Positions 2,064-61,379 of a DNA stretch of 64,000 nt are shown one piece after another (the first letter of the stretch is position 1; each line of letters opens with the position of its first letter). A program made the position numbers and the translations under genes. The notes below the pieces were generated by a model. That model made no database searches, was not told the origin of the DNA, and worked only from the letters and a program-made list of their open reading frames with translations. Origin of the DNA: a virus. Taxonomy: Duplodnaviria; Heunggongvirae; Uroviricota; Caudoviricetes. Location: positions 125,430 through 189,429 of IMG/VR virus record IMGVR_UViG_3300029305_004950; one strand, given 5' to 3'.

Positions 2064-3405
2064 AATTACTATGGATTCTTTAACACATGATCAGCAAAGA
2101 GCTATAAAGAAAATGGTCATGTGGTGGAATCTGGTTGATAATCAACAGTATTATCGTTTAGTAGGTTATGCTGGAACAGGTAAGACTTTCATAGTCAATT
2201 TCCTTATTAAAGAGTTAGGCCTAGATCCTGTTTCACAGGTTGCATTTTGTGCTTTTACTGGTTCAGCAGCTATGAATTTAGTTAAGAAAGGTAATAAGAA
2301 TGCGACTACTATTCATCAGTTAATCTATGAAACTACAGTTGAAGAATATCCAGTTTACCATAAGAAAAAGAATAAAGAAACTGGAGTTATGGAAGATGAT
2401 TTAAGTCGTGAACCAATTAGATATGAGAAGAAATTCTATACTACTAAGAAAACTCAGCTAAATCCTTTAATCAAACTAATTGTTATAGATGAATACTCTA
2501 TGGCTAGTGATGAAATGTTAAAGGATATACTAAGTTTTGGTATTAAAGTCTTGATGATTGGAGATTCAGGTCAGCTCGAACCAGTGAATAAAGTAAATAC
2601 CTTTATGGATGAGTATGATTCTATACTAGAAGAAATTGTAAGACAACAAGGTGAAAGTCCCATTATTGATCTATCTTTTAAAGCGAGAAATAAGATAGCT
2701 ATTCCATATGGTACTTATAATGAAGATGCTGAAGTATTACCTATGTATTGTTTAGATGATATAGATGATGCTATAGAATTATATACATGGGCAGATCAGA
2801 TTCTTTGTGGTTCTAATAGAACTAGAAAGAATATAAATCGAATTGTTAGAAAACATTTAGGATTTACTGATATAATCCCTCAAGTAGGAGATAAGGTAGT
2901 TTGTACTCAGAATAATTGGAAACTATTAACATATAGTCCTAAATTAGGAACCTATATAAATCTAGTAAATGGCACTATGGGTTATGTAAACAAGATTAAA
3001 GCAGTTAGTCTAGTTTCTAAAGAATTCATCATGGATTTTAGATGTGACTTTGATCCAGAATGTGTATTTGAAGATATCAAAGTTAGTTTCTGTAATTTTG
3101 ATGAAGAAACACAACCACCCTCTCAAAGAGGTAAGTTTGACGGTAGAAGTATTACTAACATCTTTGATTTTGGTTATGCTATGACTGTTCATAAAGCACA
3201 GGGTAATGGATATGGTAAAGTTCTTGTTATAGTCGAAAAAATGTCCTTTAGACCTTTCAATATAGAAACTGAAAGACGTTGGCTGTATACTGCTATTACA
3301 AGAGCTGAAAAACAGTTGATTATGTTAATTGATGATAAATACTATCGTAGTCCTTTGTATGAAAGAGATAGAGAATTTTGGAATAGCTATGATGAATACT
3401 ACTAA
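2056..3405 (+). CDS. Dda/RecD-like SF1 DNA helicase
   Basis: TTG start with GGGAGGAG RBS. Walker A GYAGTGKTF, Walker B LIVIDEYSM, motif VI TVHKAQGNGYG; layout as in T4 Dda. Confidence 0.85.
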   Translation: MSEITMDSLTHDQQRAIKKMVMWWNLVDNQQYYRLVGYAGTGKTFIVNFLIKELGLDPVSQVAFCAFTGSAAMNLVKKGNKNATTIHQLIYETTVEEYPVYHKKKNKETGVMEDDLSREPIRYEKKFYTTKKTQLNPLIKLIVIDEYSMASDEMLKDILSFGIKVLMIGDSGQLEPVNKVNTFMDEYDSILEEIVRQQGESPIIDLSFKARNKIAIPYGTYNEDAEVLPMYCLDDIDDAIELYTWADQILCGSNRTRKNINRIVRKHLGFTDIIPQVGDKVVCTQNNWKLLTYSPKLGTYINLVNGTMGYVNKIKAVSLVSKEFIMDFRCDFDPECVFEDIKVSFCNFDEETQPPSQRGKFDGRSITNIFDFGYAMTVHKAQGNGYGKVLVIVEKMSFRPFNIETERRWLYTAITRAEKQLIMLIDDKYYRSPLYERDREFWNSYDEYY

Positions 3406-3426
3406 AGAAAGGATTGAAACAAACTC

Positions 3427-3819
3427 ATGACTAATAATCCAAATGAAATCATTGAAGAGTATGAAGCTAAAGAACAGATTTCTGACAAACAGAAGAAAAA
3501 GAAACCTAAGACTAAGAAAGCCGATCACAAACATGTATATGATAAGTATGTGATAAAAGAAGAAAAATTAGAAACATTATTTGGTAGCTATACATTGTAT
3601 AAGGACAAAACACAGTTTAGTATATATAAGAAATGTTCTGTATGTGGAAAACTTATTCATGAAAATCTACCACAGTATATAGAAGATGATTTAGCTAATA
3701 CTTTTGAAAAGAATTCAAAAAAATGGAAGTATTTTTATTTCTGTATTAGTAATAGAGATGAAGTAGAGTATATAGAAAAGAATTATCCTGAAATTGAAAT
3801 TTGTTATCTTGAAAAATAA
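3427..3819 (+). CDS. hypothetical protein (Lys-rich N-terminus, CxxC)
   Basis: 130-aa ORF. Confidence 0.5.
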   Translation: MTNNPNEIIEEYEAKEQISDKQKKKKPKTKKADHKHVYDKYVIKEEKLETLFGSYTLYKDKTQFSIYKKCSVCGKLIHENLPQYIEDDLANTFEKNSKKWKYFYFCISNRDEVEYIEKNYPEIEICYLEK

Positions 3820-13489: not shown

Positions 13490-15019
13490 ATGGCGACTAA
13501 AAAGAATCTAACATATAACGAAGATAGTATTAAAGTCCAAGAATATCCTGATAATGTAAGATCTAATCCTACAGTCTATATCAGTAGTCTTGGTAAAGAA
13601 GGTAATACGCATCTACTAAGAGAAGTAATTGATAACTCTATTGATGAATTCCTAAATGGTTTTGGTAAAACAATTACAATTGAAATTTCCAATAAAAAAG
13701 GTGTATTTAGAGTAATTGATGAAGGTCGTGGTGTTCCTCCTAAATCTATTGAAAGAGCATTTACTACATTACATGCTTCAGGTAAATTCGATAAAGATAG
13801 TTATAGCACATCAGGTGGTCAGCATGGTCTTGGTAGTACATGTGTTAATGCACTTAGTAAGTATTTCCTTGTCATTACACATGAAGGTGGTCATGAATAC
13901 TCTCAAAGATTTGAATATGGTAAGAAAGTAACTGAACTAAAAGATTTAGGAAAGTCTGATAAGGTAGGTACTATTGTAGAGTTTTGTCCTGATGAATCTG
14001 TAATGGATACATTTGAGATTGACATTGAATCAGTCAAAGATGAATGTAAGATGAAGTCTTTTATCAATAAAGGACTTACTATCATTATTAAGGACATGGA
14101 TGAAAAGAAACAGGCTAAGTATTATCATAAAGATGGTATTGAGGAATACGTACAGTTAAATGCTAAGAAAGCTCTATTTAATCCTATTACATTCTCTACA
14201 TCAACTACTGTTAACAAGGCTAATAAAGAATTGAATGTAGAAATCGATTGTTCCTTTACTTATGATAACTCTACTGATCCTATCAATATTAAATCCTTCT
14301 GTAATTCCATTTATACTAGTGATGGCGGTACTCATGAAACTGGTTTTAAAACAGCTCTTACTAGTTTGATTAAAAAGTATATTGCTGATAATAACCTACT
14401 AACTAAAAAAGATGCAAATCTAGACATTACTGGTGATTCAGTTCAGGAAGGTGTAGTAGCAGTAGTATCTATCAAACATCCTCATCCGATGTATGATCAG
14501 CAGTCTAAGAAAAAGCTTAACTCTACAGAAGTTTCTGGTGCAGTAATGAAAGCAGTTAATGCAGAATTTAGTAAGTGGATTGAAACCCATGCTAAAGAAA
14601 TGAAAGTACTTTGTACTAAAGTAATTGAATCTGCAAAGGCTAACAGTGCTGCTAAGAGAGCTAAAGAACTAGCTAATAAGAAATCTGAAAATGGAATTAC
14701 TGCTGTTTCTGATCTATCAAAATTAGCTAACTGTATTTCTAAGAAACCTGAAGAATGTGAACTGTTTGTAGTTGAGGGTAATTCTGCAAGTTCAAGTGCT
14801 AGAAATGGTAGAGATAAGCAAACTCAGGCTGTTTATGCTCTAAGAGGTAAGATTCTCAATACTAACAATCTAGCTGAAACTAAGATTTTTGAAAATAAGG
14901 AACTATCAGATTTGATTTATATCTTAACTGGTAAGAAAACTGCAATTGGTAAGAATTTCAATGTTGAAGACATGAAGTATCATAAACTGGTAGCCTTGAC
15001 TGATGCTGACGATGACGGT
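13490..15019 (+). CDS. gyrB: type II topoisomerase ATPase subunit (GyrB/ParE-like), exon 1
   Basis: GHKL ATPase motifs EVIDNSIDE, GRGVP, GGQHGLGS; Toprim EGNSASSS and DADDDG. The reading frame hits a stop two codons after the conserved DADxDG motif; the downstream ORF supplies the rest (HIASLILGF...PPLY). Confidence 0.88.
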
Positions 15020-16310
15020 AAATGACACATTAAGTCTGCATCAGTGAGAAATTTTCTAACAATACATTAGTATTAATGTTAGGAGGTTTCATTCAAATGA
15101 AAAATGAAAAAGAAACTAAAGAAAGATATGCTTCTGGTATTGAAAATTGTAAAAAACAAGCTCAAAATCTTAAACAAAAAGCATCTGAAAAATTTTTAAG
15201 TAAAGTTTACGAACAAGTTGGTGATGATTATACTTTTCTGGAAACTTATGTAACGAGTAAAACTAAACTCTGGGTAATACATAATGTTTGTGGACATAAG
15301 TATAGAGTAACTCCAAATGAGTTTACTTCTCATAAAAGACGTTGTCCAAACTGTGCAAATAAAAAAAGAGTACTTAATACTGGAATAAAACCTCATACAT
15401 TAGAATCTATTATTGAAAGTGTAAAAGAATTATCTAATGACGAATATGAGGTAGTTAGTAATGAGTATGAAAATAATAAAGAAAAAATTTGGGTTAGACA
15501 TAAAACATGTAGTTATTCATACCTTGTTCGTTATAATGACTTTCAGCAAGGATATAGATGTCCTTTATGTGCTGACATGAATAAAAGTCAGAATAATTCT
15601 AAACCAATACAGGATATTAAAAGTGTTCTAGATTTTAATAAAATTGAGTATGAATCAGAAGTGTCATTTGAAGAATGTGTAGACAAACGTTTTCTTCCAT
15701 TTGATATATTGGTTTATACTGATAAAGTCAATGATGAATACTTTTTAATTGAGTATGATGGACAACAACATTCTGATCCTAATGCACAATTTGGAGGAAC
15801 TAAAGAAGAAAGACTTATTAGATTTGAGCTAACTCAAAAACATGACACTATAAAAAATGCTTTTTGTGAAGAAAACAGTATAAAACTTTATAGAATTTCT
15901 TATAAAGAAGATTTGATGAGCAAACTAAGAAGTATATTGGAAGAAAATAATCTAATTTGACTTGCAGTGAATGCCGTCTAAAAACCTAGTTAACTGCGGG
16001 AAACTATCAATAAACACTATTTACTAAACTAAGATAGTAATATACTTAGTGGCAATGGGTAACTCCAAAGATATAGTAAAAAGAATAGTGTTTGATACAA
16101 TCGACGCAACGAAGTATCCTACATTTAGTAAAAGATAGGATATGAGTTCAACGACTATCGAAACCAACTAACTTAATGTTAGTAATAAGGTAAGTTGAAA
16201 TACTTACACGAAGGGAGTAGAGTAGGGAAATGTAAATTACAAAGTACCGAAAAGCTAGGCTATACTAATTTAGTATAGAAAATATAGTCTAAATTATGCA
16301 AAGTAATTTG
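15020..16310 (+). mobile_element. group I self-splicing intron with homing-endonuclease ORF in the P1 loop
   Basis: Internal guide GCCGTC (15973-15978) complements the exon-1 end GACGGU with a terminal U-G pair. P-like element AACTGCGGGAAAC (~15992), R element GTTCAACGACTA (16146-16157), S element AAAATATAGTCT (~16279). The intron ends in G (16310), giving an in-frame join DADDDG|LHIASLILGF. Confidence 0.75.
15097..15960 (+). CDS. intron-encoded homing endonuclease candidate: two Zn-ribbon-like modules plus a PD-(D/E)xK (Vsr/DUF559-like) nuclease domain
   Basis: ATG at 15097 with TAGGAGG RBS. Duplicated W..H..C..Y.V....F....RCP.CA modules; C-terminal RFLPFDILVY...LIEYDGQQH resembles the restriction-endonuclease-like fold core. 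Confidence 0.55.
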   Translation: MKNEKETKERYASGIENCKKQAQNLKQKASEKFLSKVYEQVGDDYTFLETYVTSKTKLWVIHNVCGHKYRVTPNEFTSHKRRCPNCANKKRVLNTGIKPHTLESIIESVKELSNDEYEVVSNEYENNKEKIWVRHKTCSYSYLVRYNDFQQGYRCPLCADMNKSQNNSKPIQDIKSVLDFNKIEYESEVSFEECVDKRFLPFDILVYTDKVNDEYFLIEYDGQQHSDPNAQFGGTKEERLIRFELTQKHDTIKNAFCEENSIKLYRISYKEDLMSKLRSILEENNLI

Positions 16311-17135
16311 CTTCACATTGCAAGCCTTATCTTAGGATTTGTATATAGACATGCTAAACCCATTTTGGAAAAAGGTTACATGTATATTGCAATGCCTCCT
16401 CTTTATTCTATCATTGAAAGAAATAAGAAACGTTATTTCTTAAATCAAGAGGAATATGATGCATATATTGAGGAAAAGATTTTTGAAAACTATGTATTTA
16501 GTTGTAATGAGATAGGTTTAAATAAGACTAAAGCTAAAACCATTCTTAAGAATTTTGAAACTTACAAAAACAAAGTAAGTGAACTATCTACTAGTACAGG
16601 TATCAATATGTATTTAATTGATGATGTATGTGATTATTTACGTACTAATGAAAATGCAACAAGTAAGGATATTGTGAATTTATTAAAACAGATTGGTGAT
16701 TTTGAATTCTTTAAGAATGATGAAGGAAATTCTGAGATTAATGGTCTTTATGATAATAGCTTTGTAAATGCAGTAATTAAGGATTTAGTAAAGTCTGCTA
16801 AAAAAGCTAAGAAGATTCTAGAAGATCTTAGTATTCCTGAAGAAGTATTCATCAATGATTATCATCTATCAATTAAGAACTATCAAGACATGTATAACAA
16901 GGTTACACCTAAGTCCAGAAGTCGATTCAAAGGCTTGGGAGAAATGGATGCTAATGAACTTTGGGAAACTACTCTTGATCCTTCAGTTAGAAACATTATG
17001 CAAGTTGTACTATCAGATGAAGAAAAGACAGATGATACTATGGATACACTACTAAATTCTAATAGTAAGTATGCAGACAAACGTAAAGTATTCTTAATGA
17101 AAAATCAGCAAAAGATTAAGGAATTAGAAATCTAA
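16311..17135 (+). CDS. gyrB: type II topoisomerase subunit B, exon 2 (C-terminal)
   Basis: HIASLILGFVYRH...YMYIAMPPLY... matches the GyrB region following DADVDG(S)HI; the KGLGEMDANELWETTLDP block matches the GyrB C-terminus. Confidence 0.85.
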   Translation, partial: LHIASLILGFVYRHAKPILEKGYMYIAMPPLYSIIERNKKRYFLNQEEYDAYIEEKIFENYVFSCNEIGLNKTKAKTILKNFETYKNKVSELSTSTGINMYLIDDVCDYLRTNENATSKDIVNLLKQIGDFEFFKNDEGNSEINGLYDNSFVNAVIKDLVKSAKKAKKILEDLSIPEEVFINDYHLSIKNYQDMYNKVTPKSRSRFKGLGEMDANELWETTLDPSVRNIMQVVLSDEEKTDDTMDTLLNSNSKYADKRKVFLMKNQQKIKELEI

Positions 17136-47853: not shown

Positions 47854-47979
47854 ATAACATTTTTACCTCCTTATCTTTATTATTTTTGATAAGCTTAATA
47901 ATGTTTTGTTTTAAGAAATAAGAAAATCCATAGTAAAACAATTCTATAAATAGTATTATGAAAGGAGGTATCTTTAGTT

Positions 47980-48312
47980 TTGACAATTCAAGAAAAAAGA
48001 AAAAAGATAGAAACTATGATTATCAATACTATGAACTTAATGGATAAGACTGGTAGTAACGGAAACAAGTATAAAGTCTTTTTTAAATCTATGAATGATG
48101 ATCAATTTTCTAAATGGGCAAAAAATTTCTTAAAAGATGATGAGGAAAATTTTTATATGGAAATCTTACCATATAAAAATGAACCAAAGCTAAAAGATTT
48201 AATTGAAGCTGGAGAATACCTAGATGTTCCATTAGATGAGTATATATACTATCGTGATAATGGAAATATGGATAATCCAATTAGAAGTAAGTATAAAGTA
48301 CCAGTTGGGTAA
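47980..48312 (+). CDS. hypothetical protein; possible 5' exon of an intron-split gene
   Basis: TTG start with AAAGGAGG RBS. Stop lies about 35 nt before a group I intron P element. Confidence 0.45.
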   Translation: MTIQEKRKKIETMIINTMNLMDKTGSNGNKYKVFFKSMNDDQFSKWAKNFLKDDEENFYMEILPYKNEPKLKDLIEAGEYLDVPLDEYIYYRDNGNMDNPIRSKYKVPVG

Positions 48313-48752
48313 AAGAATTCATTATATGCTCAACTTATAAATTTTCTTTAAATGCTGGAAATACTCATTTAGTAAAGAGTTAATCAGCAGCTAAAAAATT
48401 AAATGAATTTTTGTTTATATATTTTAATTACGTTCCCAACTCCATGAGATCGTAAAAGTATTCTAAAAACCCTGAGAATACTAATGAGTATAGTTTTAAG
48501 GCTGGTCTATACTCATCCCTCCTTTCCAAAAGTATATAATCAAAAAATCATTTTTGAAGAAGTCTTTACAGGTGACTTCTTTTTTTTTAGTTCAACGACT
48601 ATTTTTGTAGGATTTAAATGAATCTGAAATAAGAAAACTATCTTATATGATAGAAGATATAGTCTAAACTTTATTGAAATATAAAGATTAGTGTAGATTA
48701 ATGGACTACACACTTGAAATAATGATATAATGATACGCAAACTCCAACAGAT
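48313..48752 (+). mobile_element. group I intron core (P/Q/R/S) between two same-frame ORFs, boundaries approximate
   Basis: P AAATGCTGGAAAT 48350-48362, Q AATCAGCAGC 48382-48391, R GTTCAACGACTA 48590-48601, S AAGATATAGTCT 48654-48665, followed by P9-type hairpins. Confidence 0.55.
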
Positions 48753-49167
48753 GTTGATGAAAAAGAACTCTTATAGCCTATCAATAGATTCTCGTAATCT
48801 ACGTACAAATCAGCTTTCTGGCGATGACAAAGTAGCTAGATTAACTGAAGCGGAGAACTTTGCATCCTCAATTTGGGGAATCGAGGATGGATTAAAAGAG
48901 ATGATGGGTCCAAGAGCTGATGATAGTGTAGCTAAAACACAGCTATATAAACAAATAGCACAACAGGGTTATTGTTCTCTAAATGATATAGAAAATGATC
49001 CAGCTAATAAATACACTCTTAATACAGTTGATGTATTTATGATAGGCGCTGGATTAATGTCAGACTTAGTAACTGATGGCTTAGAATTGCGTAGAACTGA
49101 AGATGCTAGAAAACGTAGAACTTCTACATCTGAAAGAATCTCTGATAAAACTGAACGAAAAGATTAA
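48730..49167 (+). CDS. hypothetical protein; possible 3' exon (Arg/Asp-rich, composition differs from neighbours)
   Basis: 145-aa ORF in the same frame as 47980..48312, beginning inside or at the 3' end of the intron core. Confidence 0.4.
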   Translation: MIRKLQQMLMKKNSYSLSIDSRNLRTNQLSGDDKVARLTEAENFASSIWGIEDGLKEMMGPRADDSVAKTQLYKQIAQQGYCSLNDIENDPANKYTLNTVDVFMIGAGLMSDLVTDGLELRRTEDARKRRTSTSERISDKTERKD

Positions 49168-49293
49168 GTTAAATTTTCTGTATAGGATAATAAGTCCTAT
49201 ACAGAAAATTTTTTAACGTATTTATTCAAATTTTAAGTATATATTATAAAAGTAATACAATAATAGTTACTTACAAAGGAGGACTAATCACAC

Positions 49294-58410: not shown

Positions 58411-58586
58411 TTTAATTCTCCTTTGTAGTAATAAAATACTAGTAAACTCAATCTATGTTCACTATAGTTAAAATATATGTATATAAAGTGTAAAAATACG
58501 AATTTTTTCATAAAAAACAATAGAAAACTATAAATTACTAATCATTAAACTTGATTAATTTTTATAAAGGAAGGAAAATAAGAATT

Positions 58587-59180
58587 ATGGGTTTATTAAA
58601 AGCACAGTTTAACAAGGCTATTGATAATGGTAAGTTAGGTAAAAAAGTAGAATATATTCCTTTTTATCGTACGGGTATTGATATTTTTGACTATATTAAT
58701 GGTGTAAGAAAAGCAGATGGTACTATGGACTTAGGTATCCAAGGCGGTAGAATCATGATGGATATTGGTCAGTCTGGTACTGGTAAGACTTCTAAGATTA
58801 TTCAGCAGGCATGTTATATCGCCGATCAGTTTGAAGAAGCAGACGTATGGCATTATGATTATGAAAGATCTACTAGTAAGGAACGTGTTATGGCTCTAAC
58901 TGGTTGGTCTTCTGATCATTATGATGAAAAGTATCAAATTTTCCAAGAGAATATTTCTGTAGAAACTCTATTTAGAGCTTGTAAAGAAATTGAAAAGATT
59001 AAGATGGAAAATAAAGAAGCTATTCAGATTGATACTGGTAGAAAAGATGGCAGTGGTAAACCTGTTTACATCTTACCTCCTACAATTATGATTGTAGACT
59101 CCGTCGCTATGTTAGCTCCTGAAGATGTCGAGGATGATGATGAACTAAAGGGATCAATGGGTAAACTTGCAATTGCATAA
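58587..59180 (+). CDS. uvsX: UvsX/RecA-like recombinase, exon 1 (3' end approximate)
   Basis: ATG at 58587 with AAGGAAGGA RBS. Walker A GQSGTGKTS. IMIVDSVAMLAPE matches RecA/UvsX VIDSLGNL / VVDSVAAL. The frame stops at 59180 inside the conserved core, about 25 nt before an intron P element. Confidence 0.8.
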   Translation: MGLLKAQFNKAIDNGKLGKKVEYIPFYRTGIDIFDYINGVRKADGTMDLGIQGGRIMMDIGQSGTGKTSKIIQQACYIADQFEEADVWHYDYERSTSKERVMALTGWSSDHYDEKYQIFQENISVETLFRACKEIEKIKMENKEAIQIDTGRKDGSGKPVYILPPTIMIVDSVAMLAPEDVEDDDELKGSMGKLAIA

Positions 59181-60196
59181 TGTGCTCATTTAAAACTCAC
59201 TTAATTGCTGGAAAAACTAATTTAGAAAATCAGCAGCTTATAAACAGTTGAAAAAATTATTGCACTAATTTTCGCACCCAAAATCTAACATATAATTAAA
59301 TTCTATATGTTAGGAGTTGTAAAAATGAAAATAGATTTTCAAAGTTTTATGGTTGGATGTTGTTTAGGTGATTCTAGTTTTGAATTTAGAGCTAGAACAG
59401 ATACATTTGATAGAATTTCATTTGGACATAAGATAGAGAATAAAGATTATGTTGATTTAAAGAAAAATATTTTATCTGAAAATAACATAGAGTTTTCAGA
59501 ATTAAAAGGATTAAGTATGACTAATATCTGTCGTTTTAGAATTTCTTATTCAAAATATAGTGAGTTAATTGAAACTTATTATGAATTAACTAGAAATAAT
59601 GATAGAAGTAGAAAACTTCCATCAATTGAGTATATTACTCCAACTACTCTTTTCTTTTGGTTTTTAGATGATGGTTATACTACAGCTAGAAATTGTAAAA
59701 ATAAGAGTTCTAAAATTTCTGGTTATGTTAGAACTGAAATAGGAATTGCTTTAAAGAGCTATGCTGACGAGGATATTATGAACTTAACACCTCAAATCAA
59801 TGAAAAATTTGGTTTAAATTTTACTTATAAGTATGATTACTATAATGGTACTAAAAAGATTAAAGATATTATCCTTTCAAAAAAGAAAGACCAATATAAG
59901 TTTTTGGATCTTATGTATCAATTTAAAGAAATTTTACCTGTAAGTATGGAATATAAATTCTGTCTTTGTGAAATACCTAAACGAAATGGAATTAGTGTAG
60001 ATACAAGATACAATATGTGTGATGTACATGAAACTGGATTTTGTACATGTAGAGAAAAAGATTTCTCTAATTGTTTATAAGTTCAACGACTATGTCATTG
60101 CAAGTGCAATGTGAATATTGAGTACTGGAAACAGTAAAGATATAGTCTAATCTAAGTAGTAATACTTAGAAGAAGAACTAACAATTCTTCAAATAA
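59181..60196 (+). mobile_element. group I intron 1 in the recombinase gene, carrying a LAGLIDADG homing endonuclease gene in a peripheral loop (boundaries approximate)
   Basis: P AATTGCTGGAAAA 59203-59215, Q AATCAGCAGC 59227-59236, then the ORF, then R GTTCAACGACTA 60081-60092 directly after the ORF stop, and S AAGATATAGTCT 60137-60148. Confidence 0.75.
59325..60080 (+). CDS. LAGLIDADG-family homing endonuclease (double-motif)
   Basis: ATG at 59325 with TAGGAG RBS. Motif 1 FMVGCCLGDSSF, motif 2 LFFWFLDDGYTT. Confidence 0.65.
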   Translation: MKIDFQSFMVGCCLGDSSFEFRARTDTFDRISFGHKIENKDYVDLKKNILSENNIEFSELKGLSMTNICRFRISYSKYSELIETYYELTRNNDRSRKLPSIEYITPTTLFFWFLDDGYTTARNCKNKSSKISGYVRTEIGIALKSYADEDIMNLTPQINEKFGLNFTYKYDYYNGTKKIKDIILSKKKDQYKFLDLMYQFKEILPVSMEYKFCLCEIPKRNGISVDTRYNMCDVHETGFCTCREKDFSNCL

Positions 60197-60328
60197 AAGC
60201 TGGCAACAGCAATTGCAAAGGCAAATACTAACGTTTTTAAGCGTATTATGTCTCCTATGCAGAATGCTAACATTATTCTAATGCTAGTTAATCATATTAC
60301 ACAGAAAATTGATAGATTTTTGTCAATG
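60197..60328 (+). CDS. uvsX: UvsX/RecA-like recombinase, internal micro-exon
   Basis: Open frame KLATAIAKANTNVFKRIMSPMQNANIILMLVNHITQKIDRFLSM. It aligns with RecA [26 protein letters not shown] and T4 UvsX CIAINHTYETQEMFSKTVM. Bounded upstream by intron-1 S and downstream by the intron-2 P element. Confidence 0.55.
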
Positions 60329-60758
60329 TAAAATCTTAAGAATTGCTGGAAAAATCGATAAGATAAATCAGCATCCCTTATATTAAGGGTTCAACGACTA
60401 TATACTATAGAAATCTATAGTTAGTATAAGACTTAGAAGATATAGTCTGAACTTCTATGAAAATAGAAGACTTAAGTACGATTAATGAACGTACTAATAA
60501 TACAATTGATTAATCCGATGGCTCGAACCAAGGCTCAGATAAACTATCTTAAGCAGGATGAGTCAATTCCAGGTAAACTATTTACTGCCTGATGTATATT
60601 CTTAAATGCTGGAAAATTTATAAAACAATCAGCATCTAGTATTTTATACTAGTTCAACGACTAATTTTACTTTTCAAATGAAAAGGAAATGGAATCTTTG
60701 AAGATATAGTCTCAACTTCTATGGAAACATAGAGAAATTTGTAGCTTAATAAACTACA
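60329..60758 (+). mobile_element. two tandem minimal group I intron cores (introns 2 and 3) in the recombinase gene
   Basis: Core A: P 60341-60353, Q 60365-60374, R 60389-60400, S 60437-60448. Core B: P 60604-60616, Q 60627-60636, R 60652-60663, S 60701-60712. Each has P6/P8/P9-type hairpins. An in-frame stop at 60750 forces the 3' splice site to between 60753 and about 60775. Confidence 0.6.
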
Positions 60759-61379
60759 ATGAAGAAATGTAAAAAATTGGGTAAAGCAGTTTCTTACCTA
60801 ACTAATACACTAACTAAACTAGAAACAGGCTCTAAGCTAGAAACTGATAAGGAATTTGGTATTAAGGGTTTCTATCTATCTGGTATTCTAGTTAAGTCTC
60901 GTTCTACTGAAGCTGGTGTATCCTTTAAGATGGTATTTGAACAGAAGAAGGGTGTTAATAACCTACTAACAAACTTTGCTAATCTTAAGGATCTAGGTCG
61001 TATCACTGGTGCAGGTCGTAGCTTTAAACTAGATACTTGTCCTGATGTTAAGTTCTCTATTAAGGAATTCCAGAATAAGTACTATGAATCTGCAGAACTT
61101 AGAAAAGCTTTTGATGCAGCAGTTCATGAAGAATATTCTAAGTTCCTACCTGAAGCTGGTGTTGCACCTAGTCAGTCTATTGATATGAATAAGCTAGATG
61201 AACTAATTGAAGATGATGTTAAGTCTGCAGGTAAGAAATCTAGTAAGACAACTAAAACTACTAAAGCAACTACTTATGAACTAGTAGATGAAGAAAATGG
61301 TGTTTACCAAGGTACAGATGGTAAGTACTATATCATCGAGAATGGTGAATATGTAGAAGTAGAATATGAAGAAGAATAA
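60759..61379 (+). CDS. uvsX: UvsX/RecA-like recombinase, 3' exon
   Basis: GKAVSYLTNTL...GFYLSGILVKSRSTEAGVSFKMVF aligns with T4 UvsX GPMYSADTVF...GYQFVLNVEKSRTVKEKSKFFIDV and RecA GNALKFYASVRLDIRR; acidic C-terminal tail as in UvsX. Confidence 0.75.
   Translation: MKKCKKLGKAVSYLTNTLTKLETGSKLETDKEFGIKGFYLSGILVKSRSTEAGVSFKMVFEQKKGVNNLLTNFANLKDLGRITGAGRSFKLDTCPDVKFSIKEFQNKYYESAELRKAFDAAVHEEYSKFLPEAGVAPSQSIDMNKLDELIEDDVKSAGKKSSKTTKTTKATTYELVDEENGVYQGTDGKYYIIENGEYVEVEYEEE

Follow-up and report, generated by a model that had tools for sequence, protein, structure and literature searches.

The question raised by this locus is whether two open reading frames (ORFs) that lie in one frame on either side of a group I intron core are the parts of one gene or unrelated neighbours of a catalytic RNA. 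The window, by which we mean the whole 64,000-nucleotide stretch of viral DNA that was analysed, is about 28% G+C, and the two ORFs (47980-48312 and 48730-49167) are present in a common frame, as the first-pass annotation had recorded. That annotation regarded both as being of unknown function and offered two readings: a novel gene split by an intron, or a free-standing or decaying intron. We put at about 0.9 the probability that positions 48311-48724 are an endonuclease-less group I intron, predicted to be spliced, in the virion RNA polymerase beta C-terminal subunit gene. The case is built from the anatomy of the RNA, from proteins and genes that span the proposed junction and from introns found at the same site in related phages.

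The P, Q, R and S elements were all found on the plus strand where the earlier reading had placed them, and the helices that they anchor could be assigned as follows.

48342-48348, plus strand: 5' strand of P3, UUUUCUU, pairing with AAGAAAA at 48631-48637
From 48350, plus strand: P element AAATGCTGGAAA, read in the sequence
48353-48389, plus strand: P4 (UGCUGG with UCAGCA, that is, P with Q) around P5 (ACUC with GAGU), from the Rfam alignment, the fold and pair counts
48382-48391, plus strand: Q element AATCAGCAGC, read in the sequence
48590-48601, plus strand: R element GTTCAACGACTA, read in the sequence
48597-48664, plus strand: P7, GACUA (48597-48601, in R) with UAGUC (48660-48664, in S), invariant among relatives
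48610-48625, plus strand: P7.1-like hairpin between P7 and the 3' strand of P3, covarying in the related locus L016 as ACUCUC/GAGAGU
48638-48653, plus strand: P8 hairpin CUAUC-UUAUAU-GAUAG, 5 of 5 pairs altered on both sides among close relatives
48654-48664, plus strand: S element AAGATATAGTC, read in the sequence
48669-48711, plus strand: P9 (48669-48686) and P9.1 (48691-48711), from the Rfam alignment, the fold and pair counts

The P/Q/R/S set is far beyond chance. The exact R 12-mer has five copies in the window and none in 100 shuffles, and the composite of R, a spacer of 30-60 nucleotides and GATATAGTC occurs four times (at 48590 and in three introns near 60 kb) and never in the shuffles. 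Helices P3, P4, P5, P6, P7, P8 and P9 are all placed, in canonical order, and P7 presumably holds the guanosine-binding site here as it does in other group I introns. Two separate local matches to the Rfam group I model RF00028 were obtained, one covering P4-P5-P4'-P6 (48353-48435; 21.5 bits, E = 0.008) and the other J8/7-P7'-P9 (48653-48684; 22.3 bits, E = 0.005). With both matches at about 22 bits, the curated gathering score of 50 bits, which is a detection threshold and not a structural feature, was not reached anywhere in the window. Rfam searches of the whole window at the gathering threshold and at E <= 1 returned nothing relevant, the intron being visible only in the local search. The low score is plausibly a consequence of a 201-nt P6 arm that splits the core and of an RNA that is only about 23% G+C.

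The limits of the intron were drawn from P1, P10 and the terminal guanosine, and they agree with the junction in the protein.

47960-47969, plus strand: ribosome-binding site GAAAGGAGGT, 10 nt upstream of the TTG start, read from the sequence
47980-48310, plus strand: exon 1, TTG start, 110 codons and the first base (T) of a Tyr codon, from the ORF list
48303-48335, plus strand: P1, 8 bp between exon AGUUGGGU (48303-48310) and guide GCUCAACU (48328-48335), from a duplex search
48311-48724, plus strand: group I intron without an endonuclease ORF, from P1, P10 and the terminal G, the partial Rfam matches and same-site homologues that score 85-98 bits on RF00028
48319-48327, plus strand: 5' strand of P10, UCAUUAUAU, in perfect 9-bp pairing with the start of exon 2, AUAUAAUGA (48725-48733)
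48724, plus strand: terminal guanosine (omega-G), the base preceding exon 2, with the 3' splice site directly after it
48725-49167, plus strand: exon 2, the two bases that complete the Tyr codon, then 146 more codons and a TAA stop
49175-49214, plus strand: hairpin followed by a T-run, a probable transcription terminator of low weight, seen by eye and through spurious Rfam matches to miRNA hairpins; the consensus scan did not call a terminator there

The intron is thus 414 nt long, or 3 x 138, and its being a multiple of three explains why the two flanking ORFs share a frame. P1 and P10 each give splice sites that restore the frame. The duplex search and the coordinates place a wobble pair, U48310.G48328, within P1 at the 5' splice site; the 5' strand of P10 sits immediately upstream of the guide. 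G48724 is the only G that restores the frame past the in-frame TGA at 48715-48717 while yielding Tyr-Ile-Met-Ile-Arg. The insertion point falls one base into the Tyr codon of the conserved motif VPVGY(I/L)xI(K/R)RLQQ, and exon 2 begins five bases ahead of the ATG at 48730. Ligation is predicted to give the reading GGG-UAU-AUA-AUG and a protein of 257 amino acids that runs KYKVPVG from exon 1 into YIMIRKLQQ. The expected junction in the spliced RNA is GGGU joined to AUAUAAUG or, in longer form, CCAGUUGGGU joined to AUAUAAUGAUACGC.

Proteins that bridge this junction without interruption are common. The first-pass annotation would have taken the lack of any homologue spanning both ORFs as evidence against a split gene, but such homologues exist: about 20 single-ORF proteins of around 250 amino acids (40-66% identity) cover 88-100% of the conceptual fusion and read KVPVGYxxI(K/R)RLQQ straight through the junction. 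In the DNA of phage AR9, AYKVPVGYITIKRVQQ is encoded without a break across it and amino acids 6-138 are contiguous, and about 45 further viral or metagenomic loci also lack an intron at the position of the one in the window. In tblastn comparisons with AR9, Staphylococcus phage Machias and the metagenomic loci, the similarity of exon 1 stops at amino acid 110. The 145-amino-acid database proteins P0017-P0019 (85-87% identity) are exon-2-only gene calls made from relatives with the same intron (L004-L008, L016). Of the two readings offered earlier, that of a gene split by an intron is therefore borne out, by the homologues that span both ORFs and by the introns at the same site that are described below.

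The family of the interrupted gene can be named, and neither "unknown function" nor "novel gene" now describes it. Sequence similarity identifies its product as the C-terminal beta-like subunit of the virion RNA polymerase found in jumbo phages of the AR9/PBS1 type. Over residues 5-226 of 257, the fusion protein matches phrog_3233 (PHROG 3233), "RNA polymerase beta subunit" (E = 7e-38), and it matches an AR9-type "hydrolase" PHROG over the C-terminal 143 positions only (280-422; E = 2e-52). A profile of the family aligns with residues 1223-1310 of the E. coli beta subunit (E = 5e-5), with RPVTVGYMYMLKLNHLV, GEMEVWALEAYGA, VKSDD and KMYKNIV in register, and this puts the intron site between the equivalents of E. 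coli beta G1228 and Y1229 in the region RPVTVGYMYMLKL. A Pfam search with the fusion protein gave no match. By tblastn the fusion finds AR9 with E = 6e-46, and in blastn the only matches of the region are to AR9 and PBS1 with their relatives among the Bacillus jumbo phages, to Listeria phage LPJP1 and to jumbo phages of Staphylococcus. The genes that are hit carry the annotation "virion RNAP subunit / hydrolase" or "viral RNA polymerase beta subunit"; the annotation of AR9 YP_009282982 is virion RNAP subunit. That the gene would belong to the virion rather than the non-virion enzyme is suggested by its orthology to AR9 gp077. The AR9 and Machias records already show introns for this gene as well as its family.

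A review describes the beta C-terminal subunit and notes an extra N-terminal HD domain in AR9, PBS1 and BpSp, a fusion that it calls unique to Bacillus phages (PMC7598289). An N-terminal HD-hydrolase domain is absent from the gene in the window, whose ORF begins at 47980, right after a divergently oriented gene; because the fusion is confined to Bacillus phages, the HD domain does not define the wider family. According to the AR9 annotation, the HD-hydrolase domain of about 280 amino acids (2089-2929 of the AR9 locus, L001) is removed by proteolysis. Most of the metagenomic homologues are about 250 amino acids long without it, and the form lacking the HD domain appears to be the commoner one. 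The upstream gene showed no similarity to AR9 gp076.

Each exon has a dN/dS of about 0.15 (0.14-0.17) in comparison with the intron-bearing relatives L004 and L005, both of which have ATG at the position equivalent to the TTG start of exon 1. As read from these ratios, both exons are under purifying selection, which in this lineage is sensible only if the exons are joined. The 3' ORF had been described as atypically rich in Arg and Asp for this genome. The composition itself is as stated (Arg plus Asp 17.9%, against 10.0 +/- 2.5% for the long ORFs of the window), but it is a family-wide trait, conserved in a RADD motif and an LELRRT..RKRR tail, and it is no sign of a foreign origin for this ORF.

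At exactly this point, one base into the Tyr codon, a group I intron also interrupts the gene at ten other loci: Machias (L002) and nine metagenomic loci (L004/L005, L016, L171, L174, L175, L177, L181 and L183). Three of them, which have a short P6, match RF00028 over their full length with 97.9 (L175), 92.6 (L181) and 84.6 bits (L177), against the threshold of 50, and all ten end in a terminal G (10/10). P3 differs in sequence among the ten yet is complementary in every one. The exon and guide pairs seen across them are GUUGGGU/GCUCAAC, GUUGGAU/GUUCAAC, UUGGAU/GUCCAA, GUUGGGU/GCCCAAU and ACAGGGU/GCUCUGU. The guide follows the exon when it changes (GGGU/GCUC becomes GGAU/GUUC), and such covariation in P1 is seen in L016, L171 and L183; at two pairs of P10, both bases differ between the window and its relatives. 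When the four closest variants are aligned (the window with L004, L016 and L006-8), 94.4% of cells are paired, compared with 40-51% when the partners are slid. Eighteen pairs are changed on both sides, compared with two or three for slid partners, and none of 500 shuffles reaches 18. This set consists of only four distinct close sequences with a structure drawn from one of them, and it counts as support, not proof. P7 and P4 are nearly invariant among the relatives and neither contributes covariation evidence.

Introns are concentrated in this part of the gene. Within about 70 codons they occur near amino acids 110, 118, 138, 148, 166 and 175 (window numbering), those at sites other than 110 being seen in L001, L003, L015-L022, L165, L183 and L184. 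Endonuclease genes are probably present in some inserts of the stretch, which measure 1.2-1.9 kb. Among long relatives, the one closest to the window's phage is L016 / L084 (IMGVR_UViG_3300031555_004294, 299 kb), whose exons are 80-86% identical in amino acids by tblastn. At the shared site its intron has a P6 arm of 294 nt, longer than that in the window; a second intron lies near amino acid 148, and the contig would serve as a reference genome for the window.

These observations suggest how the RNA would work, the anatomy being that described here and the chemistry being taken from established group I introns. The pre-mRNA would fold so that the exon end AGUUGGGU lies on the guide GCUCAACU in P1, with the U48310.G48328 wobble at the cleavage point, and a free guanosine held in P7 would attack after U48310. 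P10 (48319-48327 with 48725-48733) and omega-G48724 would then place exon 2, and ligation to the GGG-UAU-AUA-AUG reading would yield the 257-amino-acid subunit. The in-frame TAA that closes ORF 1 (48310-48312) spans the 5' splice site and would keep ribosomes out of the ribozyme; its location means that unspliced RNA would yield only a 110-amino-acid fragment.

The same arrangement could be read as a dead ribozyme in a truly split gene, with both ORFs translated separately and the two polypeptides assembling into the polymerase. The RNA polymerase subunits of jumbo phages are naturally divided among several genes (PMC7598289), the ATG of ORF 2 is only five bases past the proposed 3' splice site, and splicing of the window intron is itself a prediction. 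We nevertheless consider separate translation very improbable. No ribosome-binding site comparable to the GAAAGGAGGT of exon 1 can be read before the ATG at 48730, and L016 has no Met at that position, reading YIIIKR with Ile in its place, so independent translation of exon 2 is not conserved. A break here would moreover hit the most conserved motif of the protein, VPVGY..RLQQ, with loss of Tyr-Ile, at a point where every single-ORF homologue is continuous, and the compensatory changes that keep P1 and P10 are explicable only by selection for splicing. Still less probable, to the point of being negligible, is the earlier suggestion of a free-standing or decaying intron between unrelated ORFs, in whose favour there is only the missing database annotation of the two ORFs (none in Pfam). 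Single proteins are matched along their whole length by the two ORFs taken together, purifying selection acts on each ORF, and all the core helices are intact.

The intron also has an elaborate P6 arm, and P6 is where its relatives carry their homing-endonuclease genes. The remark that about 200 nt of extra paired region lies between Q and R proved sound: 48390-48590 folds with a minimum free energy of -53 kcal/mol (z = -7.9), and the following elements can be placed in it.

48391-48590, plus strand: P6, CUAAAAAA (48391-48398) with UUUUUUAG (48583-48590), closing a non-coding extension of about 185 nt
48458-48481, plus strand: hairpin of the P6 arm, GUAUUCU and AGAAUAC around AAAAACCCUG, from the fold
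48556-48582, plus strand: terminator-like hairpin of the P6 arm, GAAGAAGUC and GACUUCUUU around UUUACAGGU, then a U-run

The arm comprises a long P6a stem, three hairpins that include a second inner one, and the hairpin at 48556-48582. An intron-encoded homing endonuclease is absent from the window intron: every variant of the arm is interrupted by stops in each of the six frames, and tblastn with four endonuclease proteins, against a database of about 1.4 kb, found no remnant of one (all E > 0.01). The only ORF of at least 40 amino acids wholly within the intron (45 amino acids, 48484-48621) crosses R and is not conserved in L004. When the intron alone was compared with phages by blastn, only the S/P9 core matched other phage introns and the arm was unmatched. 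A scan of viral contigs with the 14-mer CTAAAAACCCTGAG gave at least 119 matches, mostly by chance, and of the contigs matched only the close relative UViG_3300031555_004294 combines it with the second loop motif and a downstream R.

Other features of the arm were considered. We rejected the hairpin and the U-run that follows it (48556-48590) as a working terminator, since the U-run forms the 3' strand of P6 and no terminator is called there by the consensus scan; a hairpin and U-run inside the intron could in principle end transcription before exon 2. A GTTC target-site duplication flanking an insertion in R (48432, 48590) was also rejected, L004 and L016 being without the first GTTC. An unpaired part of the arm holds a pyrimidine tract, CAUCCCUCCUUUCC (48513-48527), containing CCUCCUUUC, which is exactly complementary to the ribosome-binding site of the gene itself, GAAAGGAGG (47960-47968), and weaker anti-Shine-Dalgarno-like tracts are seen in L007 (ACCUCCUAAG) and L016 (AUCCUUUCU). 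As a candidate for pairing with the ribosome-binding site, the anti-Shine-Dalgarno-like CCCUCCUUUCC (about 48516-48526) is only loosely kept in relatives and was given no weight.

The arm would most probably be either a structural peripheral domain or the leftover of an endonuclease cassette. There is an appreciable chance, somewhat short of even, that the intron is real and that its arm of about 200 nt is only an eroding homing-endonuclease cassette (promoter, ORF and terminator) that has no function. Two same-site relatives have P6 inserts of endonuclease size, 1035 nt in L174, with a Vsr/DUF559-like ORF, and 637 nt in L171, a recognisable endonuclease ORF being found only in the former. The arm also ends in a terminator-like hairpin and U-run, its interior varies in length and sequence among the window, L004, L016 and L006-8, and the intron of Machias at the same site manages with a P6 of 12 nt. 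The tblastn result and the six-frame stops tell against erosion, as does evidence of selection on RNA structure: in the same four variants the loops AAAAACCCUG and UACAGGUG of two hairpins are identical and the stems beneath them carry compensatory changes, and the fold is far better than those of shuffles. That the arm is a peripheral RNA domain not described before and kept by selection, rather than debris of an endonuclease cassette, nonetheless seems to us unlikely, even though the covariation slightly favours a maintained domain over leftover cassette signals. If there were such a domain, the CCUG and CAGG cores of the two loops could make a loop-loop contact, and the arm might stabilise the extremely A+U-rich ribozyme core or make splicing of the polymerase subunit conditional, for instance on how far infection has advanced or on a factor from the phage or its host.

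The intron at 48 kb has company in the window. It had been counted as the fourth core, and there are in fact five, the additional one being at about 15.96-16.3 kb in a gyrB-like gene (window 15960-16300: P TAACTGCGGGAAAC near 15990, R GTTCAACGACTA at 16146 and S AAAATATAGTC at 16279). This core splits the gene between LTDADDDGK and YIAMPPLYSI, with flanking ORFs at 13490-15025, 15076-15960 and 16296-17135. Upstream of it is a 294-amino-acid ORF for a zinc-finger and Vsr/DUF559-like endonuclease, which is 28% identical to the endonuclease in the P6 loop of L174 (E = 3e-7). The "recombinase introns" with which the 48-kb elements had been said to share their sequences are three compact tandem cores (59180-60760) in a RecA/UvsX-like gene with exon ORFs at 58551-59180 and 60759-61379, and the exact R and S are indeed common to all three and to the 48-kb intron. 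The first of them carries a 257-amino-acid LAGLIDADG-type ORF (59307-60080) in its P6 loop. The P9.1 loops are also alike, AUUAAUGGA in the 48-kb intron and GAUUAAUGAAC and CUUAAUAAA in the two recombinase introns whose 3' ends were read.

For annotation, the consequence is that a single essential gene, encoding a virion RNA polymerase subunit and having a defined exon junction, takes the place of two "hypothetical" ORFs. Automatic gene callers otherwise mis-annotate this phage and its relatives, and 145-amino-acid proteins consisting of exon 2 only are already in the database. The intron hot spot fits the idea that mobile introns aim at the most conserved parts of essential phage genes and may figure in competition between phages (PMC12908238).

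Among known systems, the orthologous gene of AR9/PBS1 (BI022_gp077, YP_009282982.1) is a close counterpart. It is 53% identical over amino acids 6-138, exon 1 also being found by blastn, and it comes from the same kind of phage and has group I introns in the same conserved stretch of beta of about 70 codons. It consists of three exons with two such introns, at about amino acids 138 and 175 (window numbering), and has none at the window site. One AR9 intron carries an HNH/Vsr-type endonuclease, whereas the window intron carries none, and the AR9 subunit, unlike that of the window, is fused to an N-terminal HD-hydrolase domain of about 280 amino acids. In Staphylococcus phage Machias, CPT_Machias_239 is annotated as a joined coding sequence for a "viral RNA polymerase beta subunit". 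The position of its intron is identical to that in the window, after GGUUGGGU and thus one base into the Tyr codon; the guide type, R and S are shared, and in their 5' part the two introns align as DNA. The Machias intron differs in being 147 nt long, with a 12-nt P6, no P6 arm and no P8 hairpin, and in being followed by an 18-nt micro-exon and then a second intron core. These tandem group I cores lie at 3242-3600 of the Machias locus (L002, MW349128) around the micro-exon ACTTACATGTTAAGAGGT, which encodes YLHVKR and the first base of a Leu codon and fits the family consensus. Its first intron has 5 nt between P3' and J8/7, with no room for P8, and if spliced it would be unusually small and missing a core helix. 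The Machias record annotates three exons; tblastn suggests four.

AR9-like phages are already on record as having introns in their RNA polymerase subunit genes (bioRxiv 10.1101/2020.12.14.422802), and in PhiPA3 the endonuclease of an intron in a virion RNA polymerase subunit gene targets the intron-less virion polymerase gene of PhiKZ in phage competition (PMC12908238). Like the mobile intron of PhiPA3, the intron described here belongs to group I and interrupts a virion RNA polymerase gene of a jumbo phage (PMC12908238). PhiPA3 is a Pseudomonas chimallivirus with an active endonuclease; the window phage is of another lineage and its intron, having no endonuclease, cannot by itself act as that of PhiPA3 does. 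When 24 kb of the window was compared with phage genomes by megablast, only intron-core fragments of 40-50 nt were matched, which indicates that the window phage is absent from the collection.

The classical phage group I introns are those of T4 td, nrdB and sunY, of the SPO1/SP82 DNA polymerase genes and of Twort. We take the window intron to share with them the P1-P10 architecture, the P/Q/R/S core, the U.G pair at the 5' splice site and the terminal G, as well as a location in a highly conserved part of an essential gene, an early stop codon and the use of P6 for optional inserts. Unlike them, it interrupts a subunit gene of a phage multisubunit RNA polymerase and not a gene of nucleotide metabolism or a DNA polymerase gene. 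The intron is genuine and its target gene is known, and what is new is one more example of such an intron rather than a new principle.
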